From Ostreococcus lucimarinus (Eukaryota): DNA of 64,000 bases. The DNA lies in the NCBI GenBank assembly GCA_000092065.1, contig CP000588.1; one strand, written 5' to 3'. This document shows, one piece after another, positions 2,514-53,517 of the stretch; the stretch's first letter is position 1, and every line of letters begins with the position of its first letter. A program made the translations under genes and the position numbers. The notes below the pieces were generated by a model that was given only the letters and a program-made list of their open reading frames with translations, did no database searches and was not told the origin of the DNA.

Positions 2514-5500
2514 TCAGAATCCGTCAATCGCTTCGTCGTCTGACTCGGGGTAATTCTCCGCGACTGTCCCCATATTTTTTCTTCTCCTCCCGAACTTCTT
2601 TTGGAACAGTCGTCTTCGTTCGTCGAGAAAGCGCTGTCGTTCGGCGCGTTCAGTGACCTGGCGAAGGTATCGCGCCATCTTTGGTTTTGGTCGGCCGAAG
2701 AAGACGACATTGATTCTGGCGTACTCTCGCAAGCGTTCTACGGCGCTGTTCGTCGTGATAATCTCCTCATCAGTGACGTTCGGGCTCACGTGCTGCACCA
2801 ATGACATGCGAATGACGTTTTTCATTCTGTAGCAAAACTTGGCCGCGATGGTCGCCCGCAAACTTTCCAACGTGCTGTCCGTGAGCGTGATTTCGCGCAC
2901 GCCGACTTCTCCCAAGGCTTGCACCAACAAAATTTTGGGCTTAGTCCTGTGCTGCGCCGCTTTTCGGCGCTTTTCGTTGCCTTCACCGTCAACGATCACC
3001 CCGTTGAGCTCGAGATCGGCGACGAGAAGTTCGTGTAACTCGTTCGGAAACAGCTTGCCGGGCAACGACTTTGACTTGGAGATGCGAATGCGTGTTTTAA
3101 GGAGTCTGCCGCGCATGGTGTCCACCGTGAGCGTCATGTTCGCGCGATATGTATCGAATATTCCCCACGGCACCTCGACGTACGTGATTTGAGTCACTTG
3201 CGTGCCCTCGGTCGCAAAGATATCCTGATAGGTCACTTCTTCCTTCAACTTGAGATACCTCAGGAGAGTGTTGACGCAAAGTCGGCGCGTCGAAGACGTC
3301 GTTGAGTCGATAAACCCGTCGCGTCTGTCGACGTACACTCGCCGTGCAAAAGCACAACCAGCCGCAATCATGAGCCACGTGCCGAGGCTCAAGAGTATCC
3401 AGGGTACGTTCATATCCCACATGAGTGGGTAGCGAAAGTTCTTCGTGACGAACGAAACGCTCTCGGGGATTGTGAACGACGACCCGACGAGTCGATCGAG
3501 GATACGGAAGGCTAACAAGCCAATGAAGAGCGCGCATAACACGCGCTGACTCTGTCTATCGCCGCCAGCATCGTGCTCCATGAACTCGCGGCTTTGGTCA
3601 AGCGTCGCCCTCGTCGTGGCGATTGTTTTTGCTCGGTTGTCTCGCATCACTTCCTTCGCCTGTGCTTGCAAAGTACGCAAAAACTCTTGATTTGCCGAAT
3701 AGTGCTTGACACATCCCTTGACTCTCTTCGCAATCGTCGACTCGAGCACATCAATCGCCAGCGCGTGTTGCAGCCGCTTACTCGATTTCGTGTTCAGCGC
3801 GTAGTACATCGTCGTCCCCGTGATGGGCGTTTCGGGTTCTACGGATTCGCCGAATTGAATAATCGGCGTCTCGCTTGCTACCTCCATGTGTCGTATAGCC
3901 TCACCTAGACGGTACAAATTCGTATTCGTCTCAGCCAAGCTGACTTGAGCGCGACGCAACGTGTCGGGCTCATCGTGAACGCGCTCTAAAATCATTTGTA
4001 AATTTCTTAGCTCTTCCTTCATCGTGGACAATTTTTGGTATAGAACGGTGCAGAAATTTTCCCTCGCCCGCAAAAGGCAAAAGGCCATCAATAATGTCTC
4101 ATGCCGAGCGCAATCGGGACCAGCAAATATTATACCACCGGCACCGATGATGATGACGTCACTGTCGCTCACATCCAGCGCGTAGTGCGTATCGCCGATG
4201 AGCTGCTTAACCTCTGCCTCGATTGAATCGCCGTCGAGGTAGTGCCGCGCGCTGAGCTTGGGCGATATTGTCTCTGCCAGATACAGCGCAAACTTTGGTC
4301 TGTTAGCAAAATCTCCATCGTAAACAGTCTCAAGTACATTTCTCTGATAGAGCGACGTCATGCTCGCCGTGAGCTTGGAACTATCGACTTGCAAGTCGGC
4401 TACGACTCGACTGAGCCAATCGACTGGAATGTCGTTGAGAATTTTCGTCATGACGGATTCAATCTTCATACCGCAAACCAAGTCACCCTCTCGAGCGAAG
4501 CGAAGTCCAAACGACTCGATTTGCGTAATTCCAGCTGCTTCCGGATACTCGACTTCCGCCTCCACGTTGCAATACTGCGCCGCATTCGCCGAAGAGATGC
4601 TAATTCTCGTGAGTCCAACGGGGATCTCGAGACACGTATCCGTGCTCGCGCGATCGACTTCCGAGCTGTAATAGCCACCTTTGTTTCGATCAGAAACCCC
4701 CAAACTTTGCGACAACTCTGTGATTTGCGTACAACTCGTGGGGATCCAGTCGCCAATCAACACGATGACTCGACTCATGGACAGCTGGACGTCCAAATCG
4801 TCCGCTATACTGCTCAAACCTCGTATGGATTCTGAGGCGCGATACGCGTAGCTCGAAAGCGGCCGAGACGCGCTCTTCATGAACTGTCGACAAAGGTACG
4901 GCGAACAGACGTAAGAGACATCTTCGGATTCCGTCACTGTGCTATCGATGTTGAATCCTTCGTCGGAAACCAACTTGAACGTTTCCGTCTTTTCTTCAAA
5001 CACAACCTTGAGCAATGAACCTCTGGGGTCATACATGAATTCATCGCACAGCTCTTTATCTTCCCGAGAAATCGAACCTTGTCGCATGTATTCCAATCCC
5101 TTCTTCGATGGTTGATACGCCATCGTAGATTTCCCGTTGGACGTCGACATCCTTAACGAACGTACCATCCCCGCCTCGACTAAATCGTCGAGATTATCTC
5201 TCGCTTCTTGGGAGATATTCAGCATCATTCGTTTTGAACCGACTTCTTCACCGTATGGGGAGTAATCGTAGTCGAAAACACCAGCCAAGATCGCTTCGTA
5301 AACTAGAACCATGATGTGAAGATAACGAATCCAACGCTCCTTGTCCGTCGCCTTCTCAGCTAATCGACTATGCTTGCTAATAAAGTACAACAATTTGTAG
5401 TGCTCCGGCGTGAGAACGTCTACCACCGAATTCTTGAATAGTTGACTCTTCACTGACGAAGCCACATCTTTCGTTGGCCGGGCTGATGCTACCGCCATAG

Positions 5501-6416
5501 AGCTCGAGAGAGGATCTGAAGACGTCGTCGCGGCCGCGGACGCCTCAATCGCTCGATCAAACCAACGAATCGCGTACCCTTTATCCTGTGGTCTGTACGC
5601 ATCGGCGATCATGAAATCATAATTCAGCTTGTACGTTAAACGCTTGAACTCCTCGTCGTGCGCGTTGAACGCGGCGTCTTCTTTTGTATGACCAGTCACA
5701 AACAAGTACGCATGCGTCATGCCGTGAAGAAGCGCCTCCTTTGTCATTTGCGTCATTTTGAAGCGACGCAAAACGTCCGGCATACGCAAATGCGCCACGC
5801 GTGAATACTGCGACGCCCGTTTCTCGATGACACAGCACACCCCGACGCATAACTGCCTCGGGTTCGCCCCGTGCCACCACTTCGGCACATCGCTGCACAA
5901 ACAATACTTGAATAGACTGTCGAGTTTTGCTTTTTCGCCCATGTCTTCACTCTCATCGTCATTTCTATGCGACGGCGACGCGTGCCAAGAAAACGTGACG
6001 CGGCCGTTGAGTTTGCTTTCGAAATAAATCGAATCGTAGTACGCGAATAAACCGTCGACGTCTGTCCACTCAAGCGGATTGACGTCGCTCAGCGCCGCGC
6101 CGCGCTTCGCAGAGCGCACGCTCGAGAGCGCTTTGCGCCACGAACCGCGCGCTTTGGACTCGTTCGCCGCACCTACGTTAAATATCGACGCTCGCGTTTC
6201 CAGCACGCCTCTCCTTACGTCCTCTTCGTTGATTCTCCCGGTCGGTTGCGACTTTCGTCGTTCGTCTCGCTGAACGCGCAACTCTCTGTCCACGTCTTCT
6301 TTACGCGCGCTCGTGAACGCGACCGTCGCCGGCGTCCGCGCGATCGCACGACCAGGGTCAAGGTTTTCGCCCATCATCGTCGCCCGCGCGCGCTCTAACG
6401 AGTCCCTCAACGCCAT
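2514..6416 (-). CDS. Large (1300 aa) membrane protein with an N-terminal SprT/Spartan-like metalloprotease domain whose catalytic Glu is replaced by Gly
   Basis: Residues about 120-300 align with the Spartan/SprT domain: CVGVCCV...ALLHGMTHAYLFVTGH...NAHDEEF against human SCAGVC...LLHEMIHAYLFVTNN...GHGPEF. The HExxH motif reads HGMTH, so the three zinc-ligand histidines are kept but the general-base Glu is lost. The rest is long with predicted TM helices near the C-terminus; a DUF155/RMD1-like stretch (DVIIIGAGGIIFAG) is possible. Confidence 0.6.
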   Translation of the reverse strand: MALRDSLERARATMMGENLDPGRAIARTPATVAFTSARKEDVDRELRVQRDERRKSQPTGRINEEDVRRGVLETRASIFNVGAANESKARGSWRKALSSVRSAKRGAALSDVNPLEWTDVDGLFAYYDSIYFESKLNGRVTFSWHASPSHRNDDESEDMGEKAKLDSLFKYCLCSDVPKWWHGANPRQLCVGVCCVIEKRASQYSRVAHLRMPDVLRRFKMTQMTKEALLHGMTHAYLFVTGHTKEDAAFNAHDEEFKRLTYKLNYDFMIADAYRPQDKGYAIRWFDRAIEASAAATTSSDPLSSSMAVASARPTKDVASSVKSQLFKNSVVDVLTPEHYKLLYFISKHSRLAEKATDKERWIRYLHIMVLVYEAILAGVFDYDYSPYGEEVGSKRMMLNISQEARDNLDDLVEAGMVRSLRMSTSNGKSTMAYQPSKKGLEYMRQGSISREDKELCDEFMYDPRGSLLKVVFEEKTETFKLVSDEGFNIDSTVTESEDVSYVCSPYLCRQFMKSASRPLSSYAYRASESIRGLSSIADDLDVQLSMSRVIVLIGDWIPTSCTQITELSQSLGVSDRNKGGYYSSEVDRASTDTCLEIPVGLTRISISSANAAQYCNVEAEVEYPEAAGITQIESFGLRFAREGDLVCGMKIESVMTKILNDIPVDWLSRVVADLQVDSSKLTASMTSLYQRNVLETVYDGDFANRPKFALYLAETISPKLSARHYLDGDSIEAEVKQLIGDTHYALDVSDSDVIIIGAGGIIFAGPDCARHETLLMAFCLLRARENFCTVLYQKLSTMKEELRNLQMILERVHDEPDTLRRAQVSLAETNTNLYRLGEAIRHMEVASETPIIQFGESVEPETPITGTTMYYALNTKSSKRLQHALAIDVLESTIAKRVKGCVKHYSANQEFLRTLQAQAKEVMRDNRAKTIATTRATLDQSREFMEHDAGGDRQSQRVLCALFIGLLAFRILDRLVGSSFTIPESVSFVTKNFRYPLMWDMNVPWILLSLGTWLMIAAGCAFARRVYVDRRDGFIDSTTSSTRRLCVNTLLRYLKLKEEVTYQDIFATEGTQVTQITYVEVPWGIFDTYRANMTLTVDTMRGRLLKTRIRISKSKSLPGKLFPNELHELLVADLELNGVIVDGEGNEKRRKAAQHRTKPKILLVQALGEVGVREITLTDSTLESLRATIAAKFCYRMKNVIRMSLVQHVSPNVTDEEIITTNSAVERLREYARINVVFFGRPKPKMARYLRQVTERAERQRFLDERRRLFQKKFGRRRKNMGTVAENYPESDDEAIDGF

Positions 6417-14014: not shown

Positions 14015-14066
14015 GCGACACTATCGCGACAGCTTTAAAAAATGTCTTTGTTTTTACATCAAATAA

Positions 14067-15131
14067 TTACACATCCGCCGTCGTACGAGTCGATTGCGTC
14101 GACATTTCGTCGTTTTCCTTCTTCTTCTTTGCAATCTCACGCATAGCTGGAAGCGCGCCCGGCGGCGTGCCTTTCTTCCCGATGTTATATACGCACGCGT
14201 ACGGTGCGATGAGAGCGCTTGGATCGATCGCAGCGCACGCGCGACGAATCACGTCCTCAGCCGCGCTCACGAGCGCTTCGTCTTGGCCCACCGGCCCGAG
14301 GCTCACGCGAGCGACGTGCGTAAACCTGTGATCGACTTCGTTCGCCTTGGAGCTCTTGACGACTTCGAAAAGCGAAGCGTCTTGAAACGCACCCGCGCCG
14401 ACGATGGCTTGCGCGCTCGTGATGCCGAAGGTGGTCGCCCAATCATTCGCGTCGACGCCGCCCGCGTTCGCCTTGACGCCGACGAAGATGACGACGTTCG
14501 ACTCGTCGAAACCAAACACCGGCACCACCGCGTCCGAGCCTTCCGCCGCCTCGATCATTTCTCGTCGTTTCGCGCGCGTTCTCGCGAACGCCGACGCCCC
14601 GTCCGCGTCGCTCGGCGCGTACGCCGCGATTTCTCTGCACGCCAGCGCGTGTTCGGTTTGGTTCAGATGCCCCATCTCCACCGCGTCGACGAAATCCGAA
14701 AACGCCGCAAACATGTCCTCCGGCGCCACGTCGTCGAACAGCGCGCAATTGAAGCAAGCGTTGGGTTCTCGAGCGTCTATTCTCTCCTCCCCGTTCCCGA
14801 GCGCGTAGTGAAAGTGCGCGCTCACAAAGTTTGGATGAAACCTCGCCACCTCGACGACGTGCAGCGCGCCCTCCAGGAACGTCCCAAAGATTGGTATCGG
14901 CGCCTCCAGCGTGTCGTACACGTGAAACAGCACGGTGCCGTCGTACACGCGCCGCGCGCTCGCCCCATCGTCGCGTCGCCGCGTCGCCGTCTCGAGCGGC
15001 GCTTCGTTCACGGCGCGACGTCGCCCCGTCGCCGCGCGTCGCGCCCCGAATCGCACACCCTGGCGAACGCGCGTCGTCGTCGTCGCGCGCGCGCGCGCGT
15101 CGCCGGCGCGCGTCGCCATCGCCGTCGTCAT
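14067..15131 (-). CDS. Conserved hypothetical protein (unassigned fold)
   Basis: Only the C-terminal 355 aa of a 562-aa ORF look protein-like (FHVYDTLEAPIPIFGTFLEG...VIFVGVKANAGG...). The upstream part is Arg/Pro low-complexity and translates the minisatellite. The start at M 15131 is inferred and no family is assigned. Confidence 0.4.
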   Translation of the reverse strand: MTTAMATRAGDARARATTTTRVRQGVRFGARRAATGRRRAVNEAPLETATRRRDDGASARRVYDGTVLFHVYDTLEAPIPIFGTFLEGALHVVEVARFHPNFVSAHFHYALGNGEERIDAREPNACFNCALFDDVAPEDMFAAFSDFVDAVEMGHLNQTEHALACREIAAYAPSDADGASAFARTRAKRREMIEAAEGSDAVVPVFGFDESNVVIFVGVKANAGGVDANDWATTFGITSAQAIVGAGAFQDASLFEVVKSSKANEVDHRFTHVARVSLGPVGQDEALVSAAEDVIRRACAAIDPSALIAPYACVYNIGKKGTPPGALPAMREIAKKKKENDEMSTQSTRTTADV

Positions 15132-47950: not shown

Positions 47951-48329
47951 TGTCAAATAATACTCTTTAGTTCCACCAACCACACTTCACACTTCGTCTC
48001 GCGCGTGGTCGCATACATGCCGCGCGCCGCCGCCGCGACGTCCGAGCACGCAAAACGTCATCGCGTCGACGGTAACGCGCAGTCCTCGTCGGCGTCTCCG
48101 GACAACGACGAAGAGCTGGAAACTTTGGTGTGGAAGGTGTACCGGGCGCACCGCGATAAAGCGGCGAAATCGACGTCGCTGCGCGGCGAGGACGTCGTAG
48201 ACGGCGACGAGGGGATACGCACTAGCGCTGTGTCCGTTGTCGAGCGAGCGTTGCGCGCGCCAGTGGACGCGTTGACGAATTTGTGAGGGAGGTGCTCGTG
48301 GAGAGCCGAACCAGGCGGCGAGGCGCGCG

Positions 48330-49385
48330 ATGTCAACGGTTTCCCGTCCACACACGCAGCAGCGAAAGGTTTCGCGACGGCGACGGGTGATTCGACGGTT
48401 CGTCGCGCTGATCGCGGTTGCGTTCGTGTCGGCTACGGTGTTTGAGGGGGTGGTATTGTGGACGCACAAAGCGTTCGCGGCGCCTTGGACGTCTGCGGCG
48501 GCGTTCGCGGAGGAGTGGGCGGACATGCCGTTGAAGTGCCAACGACGGTTAGCAGGATCGTTGCCAGTAGACATGCCCACGCGGTCACGCTCGAGAACGT
48601 ACGTTGAGATGGGCCGAACGGCGCGTGAACGCGGAATCGAGGTGTTTGGCGCGAGAGACGGGAGGAGCGCGGCGACGCAAGGTTTGAGGCTCGACGATAT
48701 GTTTAAGATCGGCGTAGATGGAAAGATTTCCCCCAACCTAATGGTTCTCGAGGTACCGGTGCGTGCGATCGTGATTCCGTTTCCCGTGGGTGCCGTCAGT
48801 CAAATCCTACACCAAGGCACGGTGAAGCATCTGCGAAGGTTCGGCTTCGTGGATGAAACCAATGTGTACTTGCAGAACCCGGAAATGTTCCATTTCAGCG
48901 TATTTCACGCGTCGCATCATCTAGAAGAACACGCGGTGAGTGAGGTGGGCTTCCGGGAAGAGGTAAGTGCGATCAGGTCCGTGACGCGCAAGTTTTGTCC
49001 GATTCGCGCCGTGCTGGAGCGCGTGACAGTGACTAGCGGAGGCGTCGTCGTCGCCGGTTGGAACGTTGAACGCACGTCGTTGGGCGAACCGAGCGACTTA
49101 CGCGCGAGACTTCGCGAAGTGCTACCACGAGCACCGACGAAGCAGCTCGTCAGCGACGCTTTCATTCTTCACACCACCCTCGCGCGTTTGGTGCGACCAC
49201 CTGACGGCACTGTCGCTGAGACGCTTGCCGACGCCATGTCGCGCGATTTGACGGACGAGTTCTGCGGTTTAGAGCTCACCCTCGACCGAGCGTGGTTCGT
49301 GAGCGAGCATCATAAGCTCGCCTTAGCGTTGAAAGGAGCCGTCGATAAGTTAGACATGCCGTTCGATTGTCATAGCAGTGGTTAG
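48330..49385 (+). CDS. 2H phosphoesterase superfamily protein (LigT/cyclic phosphodiesterase-like) with an N-terminal membrane anchor
   Basis: Two H-x-[ST]-x motifs (HFSVFH and LHTTLA) about 90 aa apart, as in 2H phosphoesterases. The N-terminal helix is RRFVALIAVAFVSATVF. Confidence 0.5.
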   Translation: MSTVSRPHTQQRKVSRRRRVIRRFVALIAVAFVSATVFEGVVLWTHKAFAAPWTSAAAFAEEWADMPLKCQRRLAGSLPVDMPTRSRSRTYVEMGRTARERGIEVFGARDGRSAATQGLRLDDMFKIGVDGKISPNLMVLEVPVRAIVIPFPVGAVSQILHQGTVKHLRRFGFVDETNVYLQNPEMFHFSVFHASHHLEEHAVSEVGFREEVSAIRSVTRKFCPIRAVLERVTVTSGGVVVAGWNVERTSLGEPSDLRARLREVLPRAPTKQLVSDAFILHTTLARLVRPPDGTVAETLADAMSRDLTDEFCGLELTLDRAWFVSEHHKLALALKGAVDKLDMPFDCHSSG

Positions 49386-49477
49386 CTAGAAGTGCACCTC
49401 CCCGAGAGCGACAAAGTAATGGTCCCTGATTTCGTTGTTTTGACGCCAAAAGGAAACGTATAAGTTGATTTTGGGGT

Positions 49478-49891
49478 ATGGAAGGTCAGTCAGATTATGA
49501 TACGAATACAGTCCAGAAGAAGAAACTTTACGAGGAGTTTGATCTCGAACTCATCGATGTATGGCCAGCCAACCTCGATGATTTAGACGCCTATCAAGAA
49601 AACTGGCACAATACCGCGTTAGGACCGCGTTTTGAGCACATAGTCGCGATGAACTGTGCGGCGCTCCGTAAGAAATATACAAAGGCACTGTCATCAGGAA
49701 GCGACGACTTTCCCGTCTTTGTCACAATGTCTTTGTTACAACTACTGGCAGCAGTGGGCGCAGGGCTCTCGGTGTGGCTCTTGGCGTGGCTCCTGGCGTG
49801 GGGTATGCGACTAGTGATAAGGCGTGCTCGGACAAAGCATAGGAGAATGGGGTGGCGGAGACTCGAAGATGAGTTGGACACACAAATATAG
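49478..49891 (+). CDS. Hypothetical 137-aa ORF with atypical low-GC codon usage and a C-terminal TM helix
   Basis: About 47% GC against roughly 68% in neighbouring genes, with no third-position G/C bias. The hydrophobic C-terminus is LLQLLAAVGAGLSVWLLAWLLAWGM. No recognizable family. Confidence 0.3.
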   Translation: MEGQSDYDTNTVQKKKLYEEFDLELIDVWPANLDDLDAYQENWHNTALGPRFEHIVAMNCAALRKKYTKALSSGSDDFPVFVTMSLLQLLAAVGAGLSVWLLAWLLAWGMRLVIRRARTKHRRMGWRRLEDELDTQI

Positions 49892-50401
49892 ATGGGTGAC
49901 GTGGCACAGTCGCGCGACATAGAATAACGATATTCTATATCTGCTTAATATTCTGCTTAAGATCTCGGCACTTTCGCTTAAGATCTCTTCAGAATGGAAT
50001 CTCTGAACGCAAGGCGTGGATGTACATTGAACCATGAACGAGGCGGGACGCTTTTTTGGATTACAAGTGTAGGTCTACTTTTACGTTTCGCGGACTCCGC
50101 TTGAGTCGGCCGATGTCACCATGTCAGGTGCTTCGAGTGCACTAGAGACGTGACCGCCGATACACAGGACGTCGAGCTCGGCGTGCCTGATTTCTTACTG
50201 GAAAAAGTACAGTTATTACAAAAGTTGTGTGGTGATTTTTTAGTTTCCGCTTTATATGTTTCGCTTGGCTGTTCCCTGATGATGCCGTTTAGGCGCGTTT
50301 GTGGTGACACCCTAGCTCTATCCTCGCTTTTCTGTATTTCATCAACTACGCAAAAGACACTCAGGCCGGAGTATACCAATATAACGGAGAATTTGCGGCC
50401 A

Positions 50402-51379
50402 TCACTGGCCTTCTTGCTCGAAAAGGGCGGCGTCGATGAGAAGCGCGGAACCGATGAGCGTCGATCGCATCGCCCTGTTCGACTTATCGGGCCAGTTGAC
50501 GCTGTAAACGTTCTTCTTGAAACAACACTCATTTTTGAACCCTGCCCAGAGGTCGGTGATGGCCGCTTCGCCGCCGTCGTGCGCCTCCATGGTCTCTGGG
50601 TCGCGAATGTAAAACGGCACACGGAAGCACTTGCCCTTGACGCCATCGAATTTACACTGCACGCAGCATCCACCGAAACACGTATTCGGGCGAATCATGT
50701 ACATGAGATTGTTCTGCGCGTCGAGTACTTTAAACTTGGGAACGAACAAGTGTAGGTCGCACATGTACTGCGTTCGCCCGAGCTTCGTGCCATTCGCGTC
50801 GAAGCTATCCATGTAAGGCAAACAGCAGCACATCGGACACCGCACGGCCCCGTCTTCGCTGCAACCTACAATGACATTCTGTCCGCACGTCTGATTCTTA
50901 CGATGCGTCAATACCGACTTACTATCGGGTGCCGTGCCGTGCTCGTCCTCCCACTCACGCCGATCCAACGTGCGATACGTGGTTGCCCGGCACCCAGGCG
51001 CCCAGCAGCTCCACGCGCGACCGCAATACCCGGCGTCTTCCTGAATCCAAAACTCCCCCTCTTGGAGCTGGTCGAAATCGATCTCCGCGCCTCTCGGGAC
51101 TTGATGCGCAATCGTCCAATGGATGTTCGGCTGGCACACGAAGCAGCGACAACACTCGTTGGTCTTTTGCTTGAGAAGGATCCCGTTCGAGTCGAGATGT
51201 TCGTCGAACGCGGACATTTGTTGCGCCGGAGGGGCAACGCATGCCATAGGAGAGGGTGCCATCTCTATTGGAACGACTCGCGTTGTGACGGCGACGACGA
51301 CGCGATCTGCCCGCACGCAATTTAGGGTAAATCTGACGATAACTTTGCCCAAATTATCGTCAAAATTAAGGTCTGTCAA
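50402..51379 (-). CDS. Phospholipid scramblase family protein
   Basis: Cys-rich palmitoylation-type motif (RCPMCCCLPY) and a C-terminal hydrophobic helix ending LLIDAALFE, as in PLSCR proteins. The gene is about 57% GC, lower than its neighbours. Confidence 0.65.
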   Translation of the reverse strand: MTDLNFDDNLGKVIVRFTLNCVRADRVVVAVTTRVVPIEMAPSPMACVAPPAQQMSAFDEHLDSNGILLKQKTNECCRCFVCQPNIHWTIAHQVPRGAEIDFDQLQEGEFWIQEDAGYCGRAWSCWAPGCRATTYRTLDRREWEDEHGTAPDSKSVLTHRKNQTCGQNVIVGCSEDGAVRCPMCCCLPYMDSFDANGTKLGRTQYMCDLHLFVPKFKVLDAQNNLMYMIRPNTCFGGCCVQCKFDGVKGKCFRVPFYIRDPETMEAHDGGEAAITDLWAGFKNECCFKKNVYSVNWPDKSNRAMRSTLIGSALLIDAALFEQEGQ

Positions 51380-51620
51380 TAACTTTTACTCGTCAATCCT
51401 TGAGTTAATTAGAGGGGGTCGAAGTTATGAAAAAGTTATGAAAATTGACTCTTAGTCGTTTACGCATAACTCGGGGCATAAAGTTATCAAAACGCTTTAC
51501 TCTTAGTCCAATAACGATAACTTTGCCATTAAAGTCGTAGTTATCGTCAAAGTTATCTACGTTAGTCGGCCTTAGAAAACAAAAGACATCTTTGATTAAA
51601 AGTCTTCTCTACAGTCCTTG
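51291..51620. repeat. AT-rich repeat-dense element (possible MITE-like insertion or promoter repeats)
   Basis: Repeated motifs gataactttgcc (x2), ttatcgtcaaag (x3) and aagttatgaaaa (x2). There are imperfect terminal inverted repeats (gacgataactttg at 51332 and caaagttatc within gttatcgtcaaagttatc at 51540). The local GC of about 35% is very different from the flanks. Confidence 0.4.
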
Positions 51621-53276
51621 TCCCGTTATCGTCAAAGCCATCCCTTGTAACTGCGTCAATGCTTCGTGTAGTCGCAGTTGCGCTTTGATTTTCAACTGGA
51701 TTCTACGCAATGCGTTGTCCACAGCCGAACTCGCGCCGACGTCGCCACCGTACAAGTCGACGATTCGGTTCGCAATGTTCACCATCTGCGCCGTGTGGCG
51801 CGGCTTGGAGATATTTTTCTCTATATACTCCAAAATCGGAAGCAGCGACTGGTCGTCGCGGTTGGCGAGTGCCTTCTGAAGCCCCCCTCTTCGACCGACT
51901 TCTTCTATGACTGCGGCGACAACTTCCGCCCTACCCACGTGCAACGCCGCGTCCAGGGCGTCTCCGTATCTAAATTGTTTCAACATTCGATCGTGCGCGG
52001 CCAAGTGCACACGTCGTCGACGAAGCACTCGCGTGGCGTCTGCCGCCGCTTTAGAGTTTTGACCTCGAATAAAGTACCGCCAATGACTCGCATCCAGTCG
52101 TCGAGGTTTCTTCACCGTGAAGCCCTTCTTTTTACTTCGAACGCCTTGATACCCCGAAGGGTCGTCACTGTTACGAGGTTTCGTTCGTCTGCGAACGCTC
52201 AATACTTTATTGGCTAGTCCAGTGGCAAGGCAGTTCGCGTCTGGCGAGAGCGAGCACGTCAGCACGGGTCCAGGGTACTTGATCGAGTGCGTCACGGTGA
52301 AAGTGTCGAGTTCGTGAATCTTGACGAAGCCGTCCAAGGAGCCGGTGATCATGCGAGGCGCGTTTGATTCGAGCGCGCTTTCGCTACCGATCTCATATCC
52401 AGATGCGAACGATGGCGGGCCCGCGTCCGGGTGCACGTGCACGGTGGTGATGGTCTTCTGGTGACTGCGCAACCGACGAAGCAACCGGCCGCCGCCGATG
52501 GCGTCCCACACGCACACGTCCTCGCCACCGACGGAGACGAGCAAGTTTCCGTTGGGATACCACGCGACATCTTCCACGGGCGAACCATGATCGAGCGTCA
52601 TCACCGCCTCGCGTCCTTGTCTAGCGTCCCAAATTTTCACCGTGTGGTCGTACGACCCGCTCGCCCACATCTCTTGAGAAACCGTACTCCGCTCGAGCGC
52701 TCGAACGTAATCCGTGTGCCCATCGTGCCTTCGCACGCAATTCCCAGTGGAAATATCCCATATTCGCACCGTCGCGTCGTCGCTCGCCGACCCTAAGTGC
52801 AGCTTATCCGCGCTCCATCGCACCGCGCGAACCGCCGCGGAGTGCGTCGTAAACTTTCTCAAAACCGCTCGCGACCCGCAATCAAACAACTGCACCACCC
52901 CAGCCTGTCCTCCGACCGCCAGCGCCTTCCCATCGTCTCTCAGCACACCACTGTACGCCACGTCCTTAAATCGCGCGAACGTCCTCAATTTTCTCGCTCC
53001 GCTCGGCGCGTACAGCGTCACCCTCGCCCCGCTCGTCGCCGCCAACGCGCCGCGTTCGCCCCCCGACGACCCCGCGCCTCCGTACGACACGCTCGTCACC
53101 GCGTTCACCTGTTCGCTCAGCGCGGTGGATTTATATTCTCGCCAGTACCTTCCCTCGCCCGTCTCTCGCTTCGCTCGCGCGGCGTAGCGTTTGATTGGAA
53201 GTTTTCGGTACTCGCCCAAACCGGCGGCGAAGAATCCTCCCGCGTCGCCGCGCGCGTTGTGCTCGCGCGCGTCCAT
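51609..53276 (-). CDS. UTP15: WD40-repeat protein, UTP15-like (U3 snoRNP / SSU processome)
   Basis: N-terminal YRKLPIKRY...GEGRYWREYK, then WD40 blades (VRIWDISTGNCVRRHDGHTDYVRAL, VKIWDARQG, VCVWDAIGG) and a helical C-terminal domain. Start taken at M 53276. Confidence 0.6.
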   Translation of the reverse strand: MDAREHNARGDAGGFFAAGLGEYRKLPIKRYAARAKRETGEGRYWREYKSTALSEQVNAVTSVSYGGAGSSGGERGALAATSGARVTLYAPSGARKLRTFARFKDVAYSGVLRDDGKALAVGGQAGVVQLFDCGSRAVLRKFTTHSAAVRAVRWSADKLHLGSASDDATVRIWDISTGNCVRRHDGHTDYVRALERSTVSQEMWASGSYDHTVKIWDARQGREAVMTLDHGSPVEDVAWYPNGNLLVSVGGEDVCVWDAIGGGRLLRRLRSHQKTITTVHVHPDAGPPSFASGYEIGSESALESNAPRMITGSLDGFVKIHELDTFTVTHSIKYPGPVLTCSLSPDANCLATGLANKVLSVRRRTKPRNSDDPSGYQGVRSKKKGFTVKKPRRLDASHWRYFIRGQNSKAAADATRVLRRRRVHLAAHDRMLKQFRYGDALDAALHVGRAEVVAAVIEEVGRRGGLQKALANRDDQSLLPILEYIEKNISKPRHTAQMVNIANRIVDLYGGDVGASSAVDNALRRIQLKIKAQLRLHEALTQLQGMALTITGQGL

Positions 53277-53517
53277 GTTCGCGCCTCGCGATCGATCGCG
53301 CGCCTTCGCGTCGACGCTCGCGCGCGCGCACCGTCGCGAGGTCGCGCTCGACGCTCGCGCGCGCGCGTCGCTCTCTGGGGCGGCGGCGGCGGCGCCAGTC
53401 CGCGACGCATCGCGCATGCGCATCGCGCGCGTCGCTCACCGCGCGCTTCGTCTCGCCCGCGGACGCGCGATTCGGCGCGAGCGCGACTCGCCGGTCGCGC
53501 GCGCGCGATCGCGCGCG

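Follow-up and report, generated by a model that had tools for sequence, protein, structure and literature searches.

A lineage-specific mosaic insertion with a scramblase gene between two conserved genes of Ostreococcus lucimarinus

Between a conserved gene for a 351-aa protein and the UTP15 gene of Ostreococcus lucimarinus, a 64-kb stretch of contig CP000588.1 (64,000 nucleotides, assembly GCA_000092065.1; hereafter the window) contains a segment of 2,186 bp at positions 49386-51571 for which related lineages have an empty site. Comparison of these loci demonstrates that the segment is an insertion specific to the O. lucimarinus lineage with base-exact boundaries, and that it consists, as a mosaic, of at least six unrelated segments that do not all have the same orientation, denoted here from left to right A, B, X, C, R and D. 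Piece C is a complete phospholipid scramblase gene, while A and B are joined in a chimeric open reading frame (ORF) of 137 aa, ORF137. The insertion probably arose when a break was repaired by end joining and several DNA fragments were captured in the process. Related loci or contigs that were fetched for comparison are indicated by L-numbers and related proteins by P-numbers; the mosaic was mapped by BLASTN against the fetched loci. A preliminary description had delimited an island of lower guanine-cytosine (GC) content at 49386-51620 and proposed for it either a recent insertion, such as a transposon or a prasinovirus-derived fragment carrying the small ORF, or a region of locally relaxed composition.

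Insertion site and empty sites in related lineages

The 351-aa gene on the left flank (48330-49385, + strand) falls in no Pfam family and has orthologues in L013-L020, at protein identities of 94%, 85%, 62-64% and 58%. On the right flank lies UTP15 (51609-53423, - strand), with WD40 and UTP15_C domains; the window proteins UTP15, CorA and a kinase share 90%-identity clusters with ABO97560.1, ABO97556.1 and ABO97551.1, respectively. In four related lineages (L020; L019; L013-L015; L016-L018), the 351-aa gene is followed by the convergent UTP15 gene over a gap of 42-46 bp. This empty-site call takes in every orthologue contig that extends beyond the stop codon of the 351-aa gene. The flanks of L020 are 95.8% and 98.7% identical to the window at the nucleotide level (synonymous divergence, dS, of 0.09 and 0.05) and those of L019 84-85%, and the divergence of the empty-site lineages as a whole is graded (96-99%, 84%, ~74% and ~74-77% nucleotide identity). 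The gene order in L013-L020 is Exo_endo_phos, Metallophos, a small ORF, the 351-aa gene and UTP15. Outer synteny is kept, with Exo_endo_phos and Metallophos on the left and DUF3228 and a Mg-chelatase/VWA gene on the right.

A recent insertion, as had been proposed, is therefore strongly supported: the synteny check in sister genomes that had been suggested gave the opposite of the outcome that would speak against it, as the site is empty in all four related lineages. The same empty sites refute the alternative of a locally relaxed composition. An ancestral region that the other lineages have lost by deletion, or intergenic DNA that drifted locally towards AT, is hardly credible as an explanation. 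Composition alone would argue for it, while four lineages of graded divergence share the compact 42-46-bp junction and every identifiable piece of the insert has a closer or equal relative elsewhere.

The empty site of L020 reads GGTTAG-TACTT-TTAGAAAAC, and that of L019 is equivalent. In the window, GGTTAG runs into CTAGAAGTG at the left junction and, 2,186 bp further, GTCGGCC runs into TTAGAAAAC at the right one. The left junction (GGTTAG/CTAGAAG) is identical in L001, L002, L004, L021 and L028. The right junction of the insertion carriers L027 and L028 reads GTCGGCC/TTAG-TACTT-TTAGAAAAC; these two have TTAG on both sides of the insert, and the empty site has it once. The left copy of this 4-bp target duplication (TTAG, 49382-49385) contains the stop codon TAG of the 351-aa gene (49383-49385). 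The original event would have duplicated TTAG, although the second copy could be partly coincidental. In the reference strain, the right copy and the adjoining TACTT (9 bp) were lost, and the insert is followed by a remnant of the ancestral 42-bp intergenic spacer (51572-51608; GC 0.243, or 24%) that is identical to L020 926-962. The left boundary of the island as first drawn (49386) coincides exactly with that of the insertion; the right one had been set at 51620, and the true end is at 51571. A total of 13 independent metagenome or run-assembly contigs carry the insertion, all at the same site between the same two genes, and their flanking genes are 99.2-100% identical to those of the window. 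The insertion measures 2,186 bp in the reference strain and 2,109-2,139 bp, plus variants, in others.

The small ORF between the phosphatase gene and the 351-aa gene (48005-48286, + strand) comprises 93 aa from a GTG start, was called as 89 aa in L001-L004 and has no Pfam family. At the equivalent position, an ORF of 98 aa is found in L013-L015, and no gene was called in L016 or L018. The window ORF may be a real small gene of a kind that is easily missed.

Pieces of the mosaic and their relatives

Piece A (49386-49642, + strand; GC 0.451) consists of the decayed last ~83 codons, the stop codon and ~9 nt beyond it of an uncharacterised gene family (P0018/P0078-P0080), with 94.7% nucleotide identity to the 3' end of a small gene in L008 (525-783). 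Its decay is visible as a nonsense mutation (TAC>TAA) and two shifts of frame, with tblastn matches in three frames; the ORF137 start codon is located downstream of the TAC>TAA mutation and of a 1-nt deletion. The family counts 313 relatives (E <= 1e-3), typically of 250-310 aa (260-310 aa for P0078-P0080), and has no match in Pfam, NCBIfam, PHROG or PDB. Its conserved C-terminal motif, DGH.VRS..E / PDF / VYIEFWG, looks nuclease-like to us (PD-(D/E)xK-like). In P0078-P0101, the conserved C-terminal domain, which is not covered by any Pfam model, is fused variously to Zn-ribbon-like, KilA/ANT and DCD domains.

Piece B (49638-50194, + strand; GC 0.513) comprises the last ~85 codons of a membrane-anchored aspartyl-protease (Asp/TAXi_C) paralogue and ~300 bp of downstream DNA. 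Its nucleotide identity is 91.8% to L010 and L031 and 88.9% to L009 9363-9934, and the related proteins P0013, P0016 and P0007 give Pfam matches to Asp/TAXi_C. Since the family homology runs beyond both of its ends, B is a truncated fragment. It includes a sub-repeat of ~120-180 bp (50017-50194), of which L009 has a second copy at 14025-14174, and the doubled motif GCTTAAGATCTC (49955-49966 and 49976-49987). The latter is also doubled in L031 and was therefore inherited from the donor rather than being a signature of the insertion.

Pieces A and B overlap by four nucleotides (ACAT), and ORF137 (49478-49891, + strand) is, judged from its alignment to both parental families, a fusion of the two over this microhomology. 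Residues 1-39 follow the parental frame of A, starting at an internal Met; residues 40 to ~54 derive from A out of frame and read through its old stop codon; and residues ~55-137 are in the protease frame of B and supply the transmembrane anchor and basic tail of the aspartyl-protease paralogue. The C-terminal transmembrane segment that had been predicted is present, as a hydrophobic helix at residues 89-107 (mean Kyte-Doolittle value 2.14) followed by 24 residues. Both this 'tail anchor' and the weak codon bias are explained by the chimeric make-up. The ORF has the lowest GC content at third codon positions (GC3) of any candidate gene, yet its overall GC is 0.50 rather than the 0.47 of the preliminary description, and its third position is not flat (0.565/0.384/0.551 for codon positions 1/2/3). 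The stop codon TAG at 49889-49891 (codon 138) is shared by the reference strain, L001, L002 and L004; in L021 and L028 it is replaced by GAG, which extends the ORF to 149 aa, an allele (P0022) that is listed on 454 contigs. Further variants are frameshifted (P0003) or carry deletions in the transmembrane segment (P0002). The ratio of non-synonymous to synonymous changes (dN/dS) relative to the paralogues is 0.67-2.3, on only 8-12 changes. Among the relatives recovered, nothing outside the insertion lineage has an ORF137-type fusion. Instead of being cargo of the insertion, as had been supposed, ORF137 is a chimera of two decayed gene fragments made at an internal junction, and it is most likely a non-functional by-product that is too young for decisive conservation tests. 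The P0022 allele also occurs on a public-assembly contig of 140,429,288 bp, which is probably Ostreococcus contamination of a large eukaryote genome.

Piece X (50195-50388; 194 bp, GC 0.418) lies directly 3' of the scramblase stop codon. No source for it is present in the fetched loci, a weak 32-bp match to L009 being the only hit.

Piece C (50389-51294, - strand; GC 0.568) holds the complete scramblase gene (coding sequence 50402-51262, 286 aa). The protein is identical to ABO97559.1/XP_001419266.1 of O. lucimarinus CCE9901 (UniRef A4S0Y0, 'Phospholipid scramblase'). It passes the Pfam cut-off for PF03803 (31.0 bits against 25.4, E = 1.9e-7) with residues 137-283, aligned to positions 94-221 of the 221-position profile, and no solved relative was found by sequence. 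An alignment with algal homologues has 54 invariant columns, including C37, C43, C145, C146, C246, C247 and the L275/D277/E282 tail; the near-invariant Cys205 is Phe, uniquely in the inserted copy. By these matches, piece C encodes a member of the phospholipid scramblase family. Its nucleotide identity is 97.8% to L012 and 97.0% to L024-L026, where the gene lies next to BipA; copies beside BipA in close relatives are the only others known. With these BipA-linked copies it shares only 13 bp past the stop codon and, at the other end, 32 bp ahead of the ATG. The BipA-type context is a 12-kb colinear block in L011, L012, L024-L026 and L030, with genes for BipA, Pex2/12, a nucleotide-diphospho-sugar transferase, an acetyltransferase and Lon, and these scramblase relatives sit on contigs of standard GC content. 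After the copies of sister Ostreococcus lineages, the next relatives are those of other algae; the scramblase is a host gene.

Insert-type and BipA-type scramblases form two clean groups with 19 fixed differences, 14 of them non-synonymous and five synonymous (dN/dS 0.73), and the ORF is intact in all nine insert-type contigs. Accelerated evolution of the inserted copy was considered, as 15 of the 19 changes seemed to fall on the insert branch. This polarisation relied on the error-prone long-read contig L011, and the claim was dropped because L024, distant homologues and a third-type protein (P0321) place changes on both branches. P0321, from the Tara gene catalogue, mixes the states of both groups: E60, V117, M187, Q202, F242 and V252 are insert-type, and K57, S58, A107, R108, E152, C205 and V278 are BipA-type. 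It may be the copy from which that of the reference lineage descends, come from an intermediate lineage or have arisen by recombination. Among the 40 of 209 scramblase cluster members that were read, one CCE9901 accession occurs, and insert-type sequences are much commoner than BipA-type ones among the listed members. A JGI scan gave six insert-type and four BipA-type scramblase loci. A single relocated copy in CCE9901, rather than a duplicate, is weakly favoured. In L012, the left 2.5 kb (Lon, acetyltransferase, AD) is inverted relative to L024-L026 and L011, with a 94-bp overlap at the scramblase end; this inversion is either an assembly fold-back or real.

The dimensions of piece C could also be read as those of a processed retrocopy, that is, of a chimeric cDNA that was formed by reverse transcription with template switching and then integrated. 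The segment is roughly transcript-sized (32 bp before the ATG to 13 bp past the stop), A and B are both 3'-terminal gene parts, and microhomology as at A/B is found at template switches. Nonetheless, this RNA-mediated route is very unlikely. There is no poly(A) tract: no run of A or T of seven or more occurs in the insert, and the sequence past the 3' boundary of the scramblase is not A-rich. Piece A ends 9 nt past its stop codon, B is cut within sequence that continues in its relatives, C lies in the opposite orientation, and R and D are not mRNA-like. The BipA-type parent scramblases (L012, L024) are uninterrupted ORFs, so intron loss gives no score for or against.

Upstream of the scramblase and pointing towards its ATG lies piece R (51295-51322, - strand). 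It consists of the 28 bp that the reference strain keeps from a 66-100-bp copy of a dispersed, promoter-like repeat in which CTAGGGTTTAG motifs occur. This copy is 86% identical to L031 282-372, whose end is the ATG of a called gene, and further copies lie upstream of genes in L009 (three) and L011. The dispersed repeat measures ~190-250 bp (L031 138-372; L009 2903-3081, 3237-3484 and 7801-7855; L011 2267-2453), carries two or three telo-box-like CTAGGGTTTAG motifs just 5' of genes and is arranged head-to-head in L009. From this placement, a promoter role for R may be proposed, and the repeat may be a mobile promoter module or an element like a miniature inverted-repeat transposable element (MITE) of Ostreococcus.

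Piece D (51323-51571; GC 0.390) is an AT-rich, hypervariable spacer. It contains the motifs GTTATCGTCAAAG, ACGATAACTTTGCC and AAGTTATGAAAA in both orientations and ends in TAGTCGGCC. Haplotype I, with a GTTATC-repeat block, is found in the window, L001/L002 and L027, while haplotype II (L021-L023, L028) has an unrelated block of ~140 bp between the same ends; no fetched locus contains a donor of either block. Strains also differ by an indel of 127 bp and by others of 6 bp, and the reference has a 31-bp patch of its own. Contigs that are 99.2-99.6% identical elsewhere thus differ at 51295-51571 by two unrelated haplotypes and several indels. The ends of L001 and L002 both lie only a few bases from the right junction, where diverging alleles would be expected to break an assembly. 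The patch (51323-51353) stands in place of ~40 bp of the R repeat, has a TTTAGGG heptamer, re-copies the 14-mer ACGATAACTTTGCC (at 51336; other copy at 51514-51527) and forms a near-palindrome with the bases that follow it. In addition, the 13-mer GTTATCGTCAAAG at 51540-51552 in the spacer recurs 85 bp away in the 3' end of UTP15 (51625-51637). The UTP15 site within it is G (Thr codon) in all insertion carriers of both haplotypes and A (Met) in L020 and L019. Templated copying at short range or gene conversion involving the spacer could account for this sharing, as could a CpG transition that created the match by coincidence.

Several pieces point to the same kind of source. The contigs with relatives of B (L009, L010, L031) have a GC content of 0.495-0.51, and the donor-like contigs of A, B and R together 0.495-0.519, against 0.57-0.63 for standard loci. 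L009 (1-19646) covers the initial 20 kb of a contig that is 766 kb long. It has a GC content of 0.51 and many short broken ORFs, contains genes for a DNA methylase, a DUF5906 protein, an aspartyl protease and a Tudor-like protein, and includes repeated pieces with similarity to B, R and X. In appearance, it resembles DNA of a subtelomere, an outlier chromosome or an integrated element. The patchwork could have been assembled elsewhere, for example in repeat-rich DNA of outlier chromosomes or subtelomeres, and have arrived as a single segmental copy. In favour of this, relatives of B, R and (weakly) X lie within one 20-kb low-GC locus, and B-family fragments are joined to unrelated sequence elsewhere too (L031, P0015). 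However, the A/B and R/C junctions were not found outside this site in the fetched loci, and the scramblase relatives lie beside BipA on standard-GC contigs, which leaves the segmental copy a rather doubtful explanation.

Base composition and mode of origin

The interval does show the drop in GC content that had been noticed: with 0.505, the insert is the lowest 2.2-kb stretch of the window. Equally low windows of insert size make up 0.6% and are essentially the insert itself and 3622-5807. The dip is real but was overstated. The surroundings, put at 65-70% GC, in fact average 60.6% (0.606) over the 64-kb window, with 0.555 for the Metallophos phosphatase gene, 0.588 for the 351-aa gene and 0.61 for UTP15, and real-looking genes in the window range over 0.53-0.69 for GC and 0.63-0.86 for GC3. 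The scramblase coding sequence has the stated ~57% GC (0.569) but, with a GC3 of 0.711, lies within these ranges and is not a compositional outlier. The dip is due to the 137-aa ORF and the non-coding spacers rather than to the scramblase. AT-rich flanks with short repeats had also been reported. The lowest 300-bp GC content of all 64 kb (0.347) is indeed at 51319-51618 and the doubling of GCTTAAGATCTC is real; yet AT-rich short gaps between gene ends (0.33-0.43 GC) are frequent across the window and the repeat came with its donor. The second-lowest stretch, 3622-5807 (0.50), lies within a 1,300-aa ORF (2514-6416, - strand; GC 0.528, GC3 0.633), for which a sub-threshold SprT-like match was the only hit. 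Rfam gave no non-coding RNA family anywhere in the window.

The low GC content of the insert stems from the ~50%-GC, repeat-rich origin of A, B and R and from non-coding spacer, and is not a sign of a foreign origin of the scramblase. The link to a low-GC compartment that had been raised holds in part: relatives of A, B and R sit on ~50% GC contigs with repeats and mobile-element-like genes. The insert locus itself is not low-GC, poorly syntenic outlier-chromosome (BOC/SOC) DNA, given the GC content of the window and the gene order conserved on both sides.

Derivation from a prasinovirus or another giant virus, or horizontal acquisition from another organism, is extremely unlikely. It could draw on a GC content below the host average, on the fusion of A-family relatives to KilA/ANT-like and DCD domains and on a weak Peptidase_S74 match on L031. 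Against this, scans of IMG/VR gave no relatives of ORF137, the scramblase or the piece-A family alignment, where single-protein queries reach close relatives only, and PHROGs gave no match. The nearest scramblases are cellular copies in sister Ostreococcus lineages. For the spacer DNA, an exact 20-mer from piece X had no viral match. An 18-mer of an AT-rich D motif had 44 exact matches in the viral scan; these do not extend past ~23-33 bp, lie in AT-rich phage-like contigs and were set aside as chance. The viral origin entertained at first is thus not borne out.

The suggested transposon is not supported either; the insert has neither terminal repeats nor a transposase. Terminal inverted repeats were scored between the first and last 200 bp of both the L028 and the window version and reached 8-11, against a mean of 10-11 and a maximum of 16-17 in shuffled controls; terminal direct repeats scored 9-10 against a shuffled mean of 10-11, which does not indicate a long terminal repeat (LTR) pair or a solo LTR. 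No transposase domain occurs in the insert, the scramblase being its only Pfam domain. Helitrons insert between A and T without duplication and have a 5' TC, a 3' CTRR and a subterminal hairpin; here, the target is TTAG/TACTT, and the insert starts with CTAG and ends with GGCC. No other copy of the insert is present in the 64-kb window, and the 13 recovered copies are all at one site. A non-autonomous, gene-fragment-capturing element (Pack-type or unclassified) with a 4-bp target-site duplication would account for TTAG on both sides in L027 and L028 and its single occurrence in the empty site. Several gene fragments with one whole gene are also typical content of capture elements, and A, B and R have as relatives dispersed repeats of low-GC contigs on which a DNA methylase and a DUF5906 gene are also present. 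Even so, such an element is unlikely: neither inverted nor direct terminal repeats score above shuffled controls, the ends CTAG...GGCC match no known superfamily, 13 of 13 recovered copies occupy the same site, and neither a transposase nor Helitron features are present.

We therefore consider fragment capture during end-joining repair to be the fairly probable origin. Unrelated host fragments in mixed orientation, blunt or 4-nt junctions and an apparent 4-bp duplication form the signature of such capture; of the junctions scored, the left one has 0 nt of homology (blunt), A/B has 4 nt (ACAT), and R/C may share TCG. In O. tauri, foreign DNA is integrated in a manner resembling non-homologous end joining; the side products are small duplications or deletions of the target and inserted sequences of 64-83 bp whose origin is unknown (PMC8002553). 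At the present locus, a staggered double-strand break in the tiny intergenic spacer would have been repaired via non-homologous or microhomology-mediated end joining, and the repair would have captured loose genomic DNA fragments as filler DNA. The TTAG target duplication and the ACAT microhomology at A/B would be the traces of this repair. Afterwards, D would have been remodelled by indels and local patching; the 9-bp loss, the 14-nt re-copying and the replacement of the D haplotype suggest repeated repair at the same spot. At its new locus, the scramblase would have R and D upstream and X on its 3' side, all of them new to it. The native 3' untranslated region of the 351-aa gene would have been lost, with termination now probably in the downstream sequence of B, while the in-frame fusion of A and B would have made ORF137, which inherited the protease transmembrane anchor.

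Several points weigh against this reading. Some transposases and integrases also leave 4-bp target duplications, and the TTAG 'duplication' could be partly coincidental, as CTTAG recurs within D. As no donors of X and D came to light, only two internal junctions are resolved. It is also striking that a random fragment should hold an entire coding sequence with margins of 32 and 13 bp and be joined to a correctly oriented promoter-like repeat. The capture of a whole coding sequence could reflect a process of greater specificity, selection from numerous events or a pre-assembled donor locus, and the complete CCE9901 genome may hold a second copy of the whole composite. It is improbable, though not absurd, that the locus is the footprint of an undescribed, repeat-less gene-shuffling process or element in Mamiellales that moves gene pieces together with R. 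If so, pieces would be exported from low-GC outlier-chromosome-like DNA to standard chromosomes, leaving 4-bp duplications, and the outcome would be a re-wired scramblase (new promoter, Cys205Phe) and ORF137 as the newly born gene of a tail-anchored protein.

Comparison with known systems

Mamiellales genomes are extremely compact, and their structural variation is mostly discussed via outlier chromosomes. The locus described here is a clean, base-resolved natural case, on a standard chromosome, of a gene that was moved or copied and re-flanked in one event, with the empty site preserved in related lineages and several derived alleles in natural populations. It also corrects the interpretation of an annotated reference gene: ABO97559 is a recent arrival at its locus, and the neighbouring 137-aa ORF, far from being foreign cargo, is a fusion of two pseudogene fragments. 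Should the captured repeat drive expression of the scramblase copy, the locus would offer a small model of promoter capture and early duplicate divergence in a picoeukaryote.

The encoded protein resembles the PLSCR family (PF03803) in passing the profile threshold, in its conserved Cys-rich blocks and in a C-terminal hydrophobic helix shared with algal homologues. Its Pfam match is confined to the C-terminal 60% of the model, it differs from its relatives in the Phe at Cys205, and its scrambling activity is putative. Multi-gene fragment mosaics, a chimeric ORF and an apparent short target duplication are shared with Pack-MULE and Helitron capture in rice and maize. Unlike these elements, the insert is without terminal inverted repeats, Helitron termini, hairpin or AT target, and it has a single location in the recovered copies.

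Among known phenomena, filler-DNA patchwork insertions and transposed gene duplicates come closest, and the kind of event is already known. As in transposed gene duplicates, a gene-sized segment lies at a non-syntenic site, the BipA locus is intact in close relatives, and the relocated copy gains new regulatory flanks; here, however, the scramblase is embedded among other captured fragments. Filler-DNA or patchwork insertions at double-strand breaks are known from plants and yeast. With these, the O. lucimarinus insertion shares the precise empty site, unrelated segments in mixed orientation, blunt or 4-nt joins at the junctions scored and an apparent small target duplication or deletion, all without the hallmarks of mobile elements. 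Unlike them, it is unusually large (2.2 kb) and joins a complete gene to a promoter-like repeat, and it is a natural rather than an experimentally induced event, common to all 13 recovered insertion-type contigs, whose repair pathway is read from its sequence.

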